64,000 nt of DNA. It comes from Octopus sinensis (lineage: Eukaryota). The position numbers and the translations under genes are program-made. Location: NCBI RefSeq assembly GCF_006345805.1, contig NC_043005.1, forward strand, positions 10,540,001 through 10,604,000. The letters run 5' to 3'. The notes under the pieces are model-generated. The model saw only the letters and a list, made by a program, of their open reading frames with translations. It was not told the origin of the DNA and did not search any database. Positions 62,921 through 64,000 of this stretch are shown in pieces. Every line of letters starts with the position of its first letter. The first letter of the stretch is position 1.

Positions 62921-63251
62921 GCGAAAGAAAATTTTTGTAGGAAAAATATGGTTCCTATAATATTTCCTCATGAAGTATCTGTTAGCATAATGCAGGTCTT
63001 CTCTGAGCTTTATATTTTCACTGATCCAAAGGAAGTCAGAAAATTACTATTTATAAATCTCAGAGAGCTATTCAGCAACAGCACTTTGGAGTGAAGATTA
63101 TTTGCCAACATAACATGGCAGTCCTGGTTTAGGACGAATGTTGCTGTAATTTAACCCCAGGCGACATTGTCTCCAGTTGGCTATTGGACATGATCCATGT
63201 CCTTATATTTTCAACAAGGGAATCTAGCACCCCCACTCAATTCCAAAAAAT

Positions 63252-63298
63252 ATCTGTGTATCGTGATTTCCAGGTTATTTCCCTTCATCAGCACAGAT
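63252..63298 (-). ncRNA. Minimal type-I hammerhead ribozyme
   Basis: ATCTGTG-CTGATGA-AGGG-AAATAA-CCTG-GAAA-TCACGA-TA|CACAGAT: perfect 7-bp helix I, intact CUGANGA/GAAA/UH core, near-palindromic helix III. Confidence 0.7.
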
Positions 63299-63519
63299 GT
63301 CTCCTGGGGTTAAATTACAGCAACATTCGTCCTAAACCAGGACTGCCATGTTATGTTGGCAAATTATCTTTACTCCAAAGTACTGTTGCTGAATGTATCC
63401 TATTGTGAGATTTACAAATAGTAATTTTCTAATTTATAGATCAGTGACTAGTTGTCACTTTGAAAACTATATATTTTGAACAGGAATTTGGCAGCGCCAC
63501 CTCTAGCCGAAAAATTTAT

Positions 63520-63565
63520 TCTGTGCTGATGAAGGGAAATAACCCAGAAATTGTGGATACACTGA
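63520..63565 (+). ncRNA. Minimal type-I hammerhead ribozyme, second copy
   Basis: TCTGTG-CTGATGA-AGGG-AAATAA-CCCA-GAAA-TTGTGGA-TA|CACTGA; helix I has one mismatch. Confidence 0.6.
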
Positions 63566-64000
63566 TATTGTTTTGAGCTGAATAGGGGGTTCTAGGTTCC
63601 CTTGTTAGAAAATATAAGGACACAGATTGTGCCATATAGCCAGCTGGAGACGAAGTCTCCTGGGGCTAAATTACAGCAACATTCGTCCTAAACCAGGACT
63701 GCCATGTTATGTTGGCAAACAATCTTTAATCCAAATGAAGACAAGTAAGATAAAGAAAAGTAATTGTGTCTTGAGAATTTGCTTTTCATCATTGTCCTCT
63801 CTATTAACATCTAATGTGCTAACATTAATTAGGAATTTAATTAAATATTCAGTGGACCCAACTTTGATAATGACAGCATCACACTGAATCTTTTGTAGAT
63901 TTTAACCAGCACACTCTTGTCCAATATTTTACGTTTGTTCTTTGAATGTTTTAAAATTACATTTTTTCATGTCATCTCTGCTAAAGCTCACAGTTTCCAA

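Follow-up and report, generated by a model that had tools for sequence, protein, structure and literature searches.

A decayed copy of a hammerhead retrozyme in Octopus sinensis, with a Penelope-type integration scar, from a family targeted by an L1/Tx1-type LINE

Non-LTR retrozymes of metazoans are recognized by a non-coding unit of 150-450 bp with one type I hammerhead, a GC content below 50% and target duplications longer than 4 bp; two or more hammerhead-bearing units follow one another, and the RNA accumulates in circular form. In mussels, the repeats measure 350-390 bp (Cervera and de la Pena 2020, PMC7229834); the words octopus and cephalopod do not occur in the main text of that study. 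For the retrozymes of vertebrates, a status as non-autonomous Penelope-like elements has been argued (bioRxiv 10.64898/2026.07.22.740005). Penelope-like elements leave a characteristic insertion, in which a 5'-truncated copy stands inverted and one end bears a tail (PMC8557442). In the anole element Poseidon, the protein is predicted to form a dimer; it cuts both DNA strands and extends them, and two internal start sites of reverse transcription bound the tail (PMC11167929). Among the LINEs, the Tx1 clade includes target-specific members: Tx1L in Tx1D, Keno in U2 and Tx1-Mar in Mariner-N4 (PMC4494074, PMC4640811). A LINE is considered target-specific when one repeat occupies more than 20% of its flanks (PMC4494074).

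The window analyzed here is a 64,000-nt stretch of Octopus sinensis NC_043005.1, from an assembly of 2.72 Gb. Its region 63018..63728 is a single decayed insertion of a high-copy, non-coding hammerhead element with a unit of 353 bp. In all likelihood, this is a decayed copy of a non-LTR retrozyme, likely inserted by a Penelope-like reverse transcriptase with a GIY-YIG nuclease, and its family is the fixed-site target of an L1/Tx1-type LINE. The features of the insertion are collected in Table 1.

The initial annotation, made from the letters of the window, described a direct repeat, an inverted partner and two hammerheads, and all of these are confirmed. Positions 63296-63379 and 63652-63735 are 94% alike at a spacing of 356, the inverted arm pairs with the direct repeat of the forward arm, and the plus and minus copies both keep CUGAUGA, GAAA and UA, within the general core (CUGANGA, GAAA, UH). 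The proposed 356-bp period is correct for the window copy and not for the family, whose period is 353, because this copy carries three 1-nt insertions. Likewise, six of the seven helix I pairs attributed to the minus copy belong to the family; the seventh is supplied by the inversion junction. The left boundary, previously drawn at 63018, has to be moved: the target duplication (Table 1) sets the left end at 63038, which is the usual long (L) end of the family, and the right end at about 63735. The nine bases at 63018-63026, beyond the long end, do match the continuation of the unit and overlap the target duplication; this match may be microhomology or chance. A position inside an intron is not supported, as the Pfam search for a host exon among 32 hand-picked open frames (the window and the next 9.5 kb) placed none of them above the cut-off.

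Table 1. Features of the retrozyme insertion, in window positions.
Feature	Position	Strand	Basis or detail
Target-site duplication, left copy	63024..63037	.	12/14 bases identical to 63729-63742
Inverted 5'-truncated arm, unit 221-353 then 1-134, L end	63038..63297	-	alignment to family
"Tail", ~55 nt on inverted arm only	63038..63084	-	clusters of family ends: unit 76-82 and 133-140
Type I hammerhead motif, inverted arm	63252..63298	-	core 63291-63285, GAAA 63270-63267, UA 63260-63259
Forward arm: one whole unit (356 bp) + 81 bp, short (S) end	63297..63735	+	alignment to family
Long imperfect stem extending helix I, both sides of hammerhead	63462..63615	+	bounds from alignment; sister-copy fold
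Empty LINE target site	63499..63521	+	22-bp duplication round full-length LINE, family-A locus L215
Type I hammerhead motif, forward arm	63520..63565	+	core CUGAUGA 63526-63532, GAAA 63547-63550, UA 63558-63559
3' region, short hairpins, portion best shared with sister families	63608..63735	+	superfamily alignment; 81% over 70 nt to family B
Target-site duplication, right copy	63729..63742	.	first bases overlap S end

Both hammerheads of the window are damaged. On the forward arm, with a predicted cut after 63559, the helix III palindrome is lost and one helix I pair is broken; the inverted arm, with a predicted cut after 63259, shows two CpG decays, and its long stem has been lost through truncation. 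Since each strand carries one hammerhead, the copy is unable to release a unit-length RNA alone, and it is likely dead. The 3' region of the forward arm is likely a handle for the reverse transcriptase. Elsewhere in the window, the minus strand carries a short, ancient remnant of this retrozyme superfamily at 39334-39428, and decayed fragments of reverse-transcriptase retrotransposons lie near the element (59844-61576, minus; 54703-55718, plus).

The copy-number check proposed with the initial annotation reveals a dispersed, high-copy family with tandem copies at other loci. Searched at the DNA level, the assembly yielded 2,957 first-look candidates, and the 40 that were scored gave 146 matches on most chromosomes, at 88-91% identity (best non-self E 1e-134). 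Another 30 loci came from searching with the ribozyme half; once seven overlapping loci had been dropped, 53 loci of this family, called A, were analyzed. The family-A unit is non-coding, with 353 bp and 38% GC, and the longest Met-started frame in two tandem loci is 30-31 aa. Up to three units stand in a row (L006), and two same-strand hammerheads one period apart were found by a strict pattern in 5/53 loci; the window copy has no such pair. In unit size, GC content, absence of a long frame, consecutive units and duplications of ~10-17 bp, the family agrees with the definition of non-LTR retrozymes given above. Family B is a younger sister (352 bp, 2,014 candidates, mean divergence 1.8%), which sits in (TA)n and presents the same plan in different letters. 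Older sisters, with 1,047 candidates, are 75-83% alike in pairwise comparison.

The hammerhead core is conserved across the genomic copies: all 12 positions are intact in 59 of the 73 family-A copies from the 53 loci, as well as in both window copies. Core divergence is 1.6%, vs. 3.9% at other non-CpG positions, in a sample partly selected on this region. The suggestion of CpG decay is also borne out, the two C-G positions before GAAA being C52/T19 and G55/A17 in the same copies. The tallies in helix III (C61/T11, G49/A23, C49/T24 and G58/A15) are again of the C/T and G/A type; hence, the ancestral helix III is the palindrome ATCGCGAT, in agreement with the initial annotation. Helix I, which is the open one, consists in the family of six pairs followed by a U.U mismatch. 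Helix II of family A has three G-C pairs; its register differs among families, and it was left out of the covariation count. In 22 hand-picked rows of related sequences across the sister families, helices I and III are paired in 87.9% of 198 cells, with 57 double-sided changes, a score that is not a probability. No shuffle out of 500 was as high, and slid controls paired in 22-44% of cells. Furthermore, a sister copy is predicted to fold with a long stem enclosing the hammerhead and with short 3' hairpins (z -6.3 vs. 100 shuffles), and the same holds for a family B copy (z -6.8). The check with hammerhead covariance models gave no support, as the Rfam models matched neither the window stretch nor L010 or L187.

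One position at the base of helix II departs from the general pattern. The G10.1-C11.1 pair is highly conserved in hammerheads (PMC4209133) and is replaced by A.G in family A. The sisters have A-U, U.U, G.U, G-C or C.A at this position, and the older ones retain a canonical pair. Moreover, only one of nine frog retrozymes cleaved in vitro (bioRxiv 10.64898/2026.07.22.740005). For these two reasons, the ribozyme activity of family A is uncertain.

Transcripts of the unit are present in three raw RNA-seq runs of one study, of which ~6% was read; their species label may differ from that of the window, and strandedness is not recorded. Per 11.5-12.9 million reads, 1,387-1,878 align to one unit. 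No pile of read starts or ends was seen at the cut site in this ~6% of the three runs, which says little for or against self-cleavage. Mate directions are about equal, 62-70% of the unit reads extend into unrelated sequence, and the depth drops tenfold inside the unit, tracking the genomic pattern. Joints between units are found in reads, and these also arise from genomic tails and tandems. The reads thus look like passive transcription within host RNAs and not like an abundant circle; this argues against such a circle in those libraries only, which may not keep circles. A run search returned fragments of the unit in 20 rows from 11 studies with six organism labels, none recorded as an RNA holder.

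At one locus (L073:1546-1695), RNA reads carry A>G changes at about ten positions, at 20-33%, while G reaches at most 4% in genomic copies. This cluster could be A-to-I editing of a double strand formed by the inverted arms. Differences other than A>G that are absent from the source assembly are also present, so a diverged copy from another species explains the A>G changes equally well.

It is possible, if somewhat doubtful, that the family is a retrozyme by descent whose family-A hammerhead no longer cleaves, spreading via read-through RNA from tandems, with the fold kept as a relic or as a protein-binding shape. The A.G at the base of helix II and the RNA reads devoid of cleavage ends point in this direction, as does the fact that every copy reads straight through the ribozyme site; in the anole element, ribozyme mutants did not block insertion in vitro (PMC11167929). 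Against this reading, the core diverges less than the other non-CpG positions (with the sampling bias mentioned above), the helices covary across families, and an axolotl family is reported with a U.U at the base of stem II (PMC7229834). A loss of cleavage would be compatible with the remainder of the preferred explanation, a retrozyme inserted by a Penelope-like enzyme and targeted by a LINE.

This LINE, of the L1/Tx1 type, has a fixed insertion register immediately 5' of the hammerhead core, in family A as well as in its sisters. Its 3' end lies directly upstream of the hammerhead in 2/53 family-A and 2/29 family-B loci. Conversely, an element of the retrozyme superfamily follows the LINE 3' end at 18/30 and 15/30 loci of two samples chosen by the 3'-UTR. 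The 18 loci are reduced to 15 without duplications; 13 of the 15 helped to build the profile, yet they align by eye with full hammerheads. The sample chosen by ORF2 protein is less biased: from 119 matches, the 30 best were taken along with 60 hand-chosen ones of the other 89, omitting most of one cluster on chromosome 28, and eight of these 90 overlap the earlier 3'-UTR sample. Here, the 90 LINE 3' ends are followed by a retrozyme in 35 cases, by another LINE copy in six, by something else in 46 and by no signal in three. In all three samples, the share of flanks occupied by one repeat (35/90, 18/30 and 15/30) is above the 20% threshold for target specificity. The core begins 36-46 nt past AATAAA in the 35 retrozyme-followed ends, and at 37 in 18 of them. 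By eye, other hammerhead elements follow seven of the 46 remaining ends, and one of these (L389) is the terminus of an autonomous Neptune-like family. Other LINE subfamilies target unrelated repeats; therefore, the lineage has several specificities.

Several variants of this arrangement were observed. A retrozyme sister with a U3-A8 core has its own LINE subfamily at offset 44-46 (L412, L414-L417, L420, L423, L424). At L405-L407, at L368, L372 and L378, and at L389, hammerheads belonging to unrelated elements lie 58-85 nt past the LINE ends, as judged by eye. A subfamily with a different fixed flank (L341, L343, L346, L348, L350, L359, L361, L364) is clustered on one chromosome (C28, ~4.3-5.5 Mb), with members on C2.

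The target duplications of the LINE measure 18-22 bp overall. In family B, a duplication of 19-20 bp that stops 6 nt short of the core flanks ten full-length copies of 5.3 kb; in family A, one full-length LINE (L215) has a 22-bp duplication ending 4 nt before it. As the duplication ends 4-6 nt before the core, the downstream ribozyme is left whole. What the LINE nuclease recognizes is likely the DNA immediately 5' of helix I. Among 20 extended loci, an upstream retrozyme half precedes the LINE in 14, and the six others may have moved as composites. Before full-length LINEs, the upstream halves often begin at family-B unit 84-110, on the 3' side of the long stem (L201, L203, L204, L207, L210, L211).

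In each of the eight loci compared, the upstream and downstream halves have locus-specific variants in common and are 92.5-100% alike, while the loci differ from one another; these are therefore independent LINE insertions into existing elements. The duplication is also seen around 5'-truncated LINEs in retrozymes (L161, L182/L219). It is accordingly very improbable that the junctions are one or a few chimeras copied as a block. A block would account for the six loci devoid of an upstream half, for L143/L148/L149 and L150/L151, which are duplications, and for duplication copies that differ at a CpG site in several loci; it does not fit the locus-by-locus match of the halves, the truncated LINEs or the same register recurring in several dissimilar families.

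Of the Pfam domains of the LINE, PF03372, PF00078 and PF13966 are above the cut-off, and PF00098 is below it (E 0.0017). ORF1 contains a CCHC motif and ORF2 an APE, an RT and a C-terminal zinc finger; these predicted domains fit the L1/Tx1 group, and the set is shared with L1 proper. In a quick tree built without named references, the octopus LINE and P0001-P0003 form a separate branch that falls outside the U1/U2-flanked cluster. The Keno site of U2 is occupied by distant relatives, with Rfam detecting U2 at the 3' end in 4/20. No hammerhead was detected after ORF2 in 25 long metagenome loci of distant relatives, with a descriptor that misses many true cases, and protein and Atlas searches with the LINE returned almost no named relatives. 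At L291, a metagenome contig from another organism, the 3' end of a distant relative adjoins an antisense motif resembling a minimal hammerhead (by eye, a single case).

A bolder proposal, which is considered unlikely, is that the octopus LINE lineage is a specialist parasite of hammerhead retroelements, putatively using their ribozymes, including RNA release and Penelope carriage. A LINE landing 5' of the core would then retain a hammerhead at its own 3' end, with another one upstream in tandem arrays. Its RNA would be made from the retrozyme transcript and released by a hammerhead on either side, in the manner of a very large retrozyme monomer; the Penelope enzyme would sometimes carry this RNA to new sites.

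The way in which the retrozyme itself inserts is recorded in its ends. The inverted partner is a family trait: both orientations are present in 39/53 family-A loci and a single one in 14/53. Arm ends cluster at two places in the unit, 76-82 (S) and 133-140 (L), ~55 nt apart. The two-armed loci number 40; 14 of them, with one end elsewhere, were set aside, and in the remaining 26 each end falls within the S or L window. All 26 combine one S with one L end, for which the chance is 1.5e-8, assuming independent and even ends. In family B, where the query itself selected for the L end, 15 of 17 loci are S+L, one is L+L and one is other. Target duplications of ~10-17 bp accompany most of the 26 S+L loci; at four none was seen, and AT-rich flanks make a few doubtful. 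The family also exhibits the partial tandem, the inverted 5'-truncated copy and the one-sided tail. Fixed S and L ends with inversion and duplications are the published signature of Penelope-like integration, and the class is therefore known. A plain satellite was rejected, given the unequal ends and the dispersal.

A mechanism can be proposed on this basis. A retrozyme transcript, longer than one unit or circular, would be bound by a Penelope protein, probably a dimer, whose GIY-YIG nuclease would open AT-rich DNA with one cut per strand, staggered by ~10-17 bp. Both cut ends would serve as primers for a cDNA, which would begin at the short site in one case and, in the other, at the long site lying 55 nt further on. 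Fusion of the two cDNAs through their truncated 5' ends would give the inverted two-armed insertion with its one-sided tail. Unit RNA would be released only from copies with two same-strand hammerheads (5/53 loci), probably via pairing of the palindromic helix III.

Intact frames that combine RT and GIY-YIG, 775-781 aa long, are present in the genome. No autonomous Penelope-like element with the retrozyme terminus was found among 30 GIY-YIG loci and 19 extended loci (150/5,029 candidates scored), and neither a profile search of the loci nor a comparison of four Penelope frames with 120 retrozyme loci by tblastn detected a shared terminus. Penelope fragments adjoin retrozymes in 6/120 loci and, where checked, are separated by (TA)n or have their own different ends. 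The partner candidates L013, L093 and L222 were rejected as mere neighbors in (TA)n tracts. Two autonomous Neptune-like families with two ORFs or long 3' ends (L093:2520-2790, L057:2960-3110) bear hammerhead-like motifs of their own, one with a U3-A8 core variant (by eye).

Penelope-like termini carry minimal hammerheads and leave many truncated, inverted copies (PMC4209133), and autonomous families of the octopus genome do bear hammerhead-like motifs in their 3' ends. The copies could thus be merely truncated terminal repeats of an autonomous Penelope-like element, with no independent small element. There is little chance of this: upstream of the unit, the copies run into a further unit of the same kind, with as many as three in a row in L006, and none of 53 family-A, 29 family-B and 30 older-sister loci continues into a same-strand Penelope frame. 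Of the two readings, a non-autonomous retrozyme is better supported than the terminus of a coding element. Most insertions have inverted homology at their two ends, which also recalls the terminal inverted repeats of a non-autonomous DNA transposon or MITE, a reading refuted by S and L ends that differ by ~55 nt, freely varying arm lengths, duplications of variable length, the existence of tandem units and the 14/53 loci with one orientation alone. The initial annotation had proposed a retrozyme or Penelope-terminus family, and the 353-bp non-coding unit, the conserved type I hammerhead, the tandems and the Penelope-type tail and inversion agree with it.

The retrozyme class itself is known, and the unit extends it to an octopus genome; the new elements are the counted S+L rule and the LINE homing. 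No mention of an octopus retrozyme family, nor of a LINE targeted to a hammerhead element, was found in the literature searched; Repbase, Dfam, supplements and subscription journals may hold one. The S+L scar is direct evidence of retrozymes riding on Penelope machinery, and a strict S+L rule in a short non-coding element with thousands of copies offers a simple natural substrate for the question of how Penelope-like tandem and inverted insertions arise. LINE homing beside hammerheads, across dissimilar sequences, is a target class for which the literature searched gave no match. Penelope enzyme, retrozyme and LINE form a nest of three levels, in which the octopus LINE is a testable case of an APE nuclease that holds one register as the target sequence changes.

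The octopus family resembles the metazoan non-LTR retrozymes (PMC7229834) in unit size, in its type I hammerhead, its low GC (38%) and the absence of an ORF, as well as in its tandem copies, long target duplications and strongly self-paired RNA. It differs in that its copies are mostly dispersed two-armed inverted insertions and that no circular RNA was seen in RNA-seq. The conclusion on origin and mobilization is the same as for the vertebrate retrozymes (bioRxiv 10.64898/2026.07.22.740005). The vertebrate case is built on co-occurrence and terminal homology, whereas the octopus case is built on the integration scar (S+L ends, inversion and duplication), with no homologous autonomous terminus among the loci examined. 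With the EN+ Penelope-like elements (PMC8557442, PMC11167929), the family shares the partial tandem, the inverted 5'-truncated copy, the one-end tail and the AT-rich or microsatellite targets; unlike them, the octopus unit is non-coding, and its tail measures 43-55 nt vs. 30-40 nt. The one-of-each (S+L) rule has been counted in the octopus family (26/26). The LINE, for its part, resembles the Tx1-clade LINEs (PMC4494074, PMC4640811) in its APE-RT-zinc finger ORF2, CCHC ORF1, fixed-site insertion into another repeat, tandem insertions and ~20-bp duplications. In the quick tree without named references, it forms its own branch outside the U1- and U2-flanked group, and unlike the Tx1 LINEs described in those two papers, its target is a hammerhead-bearing retroelement.
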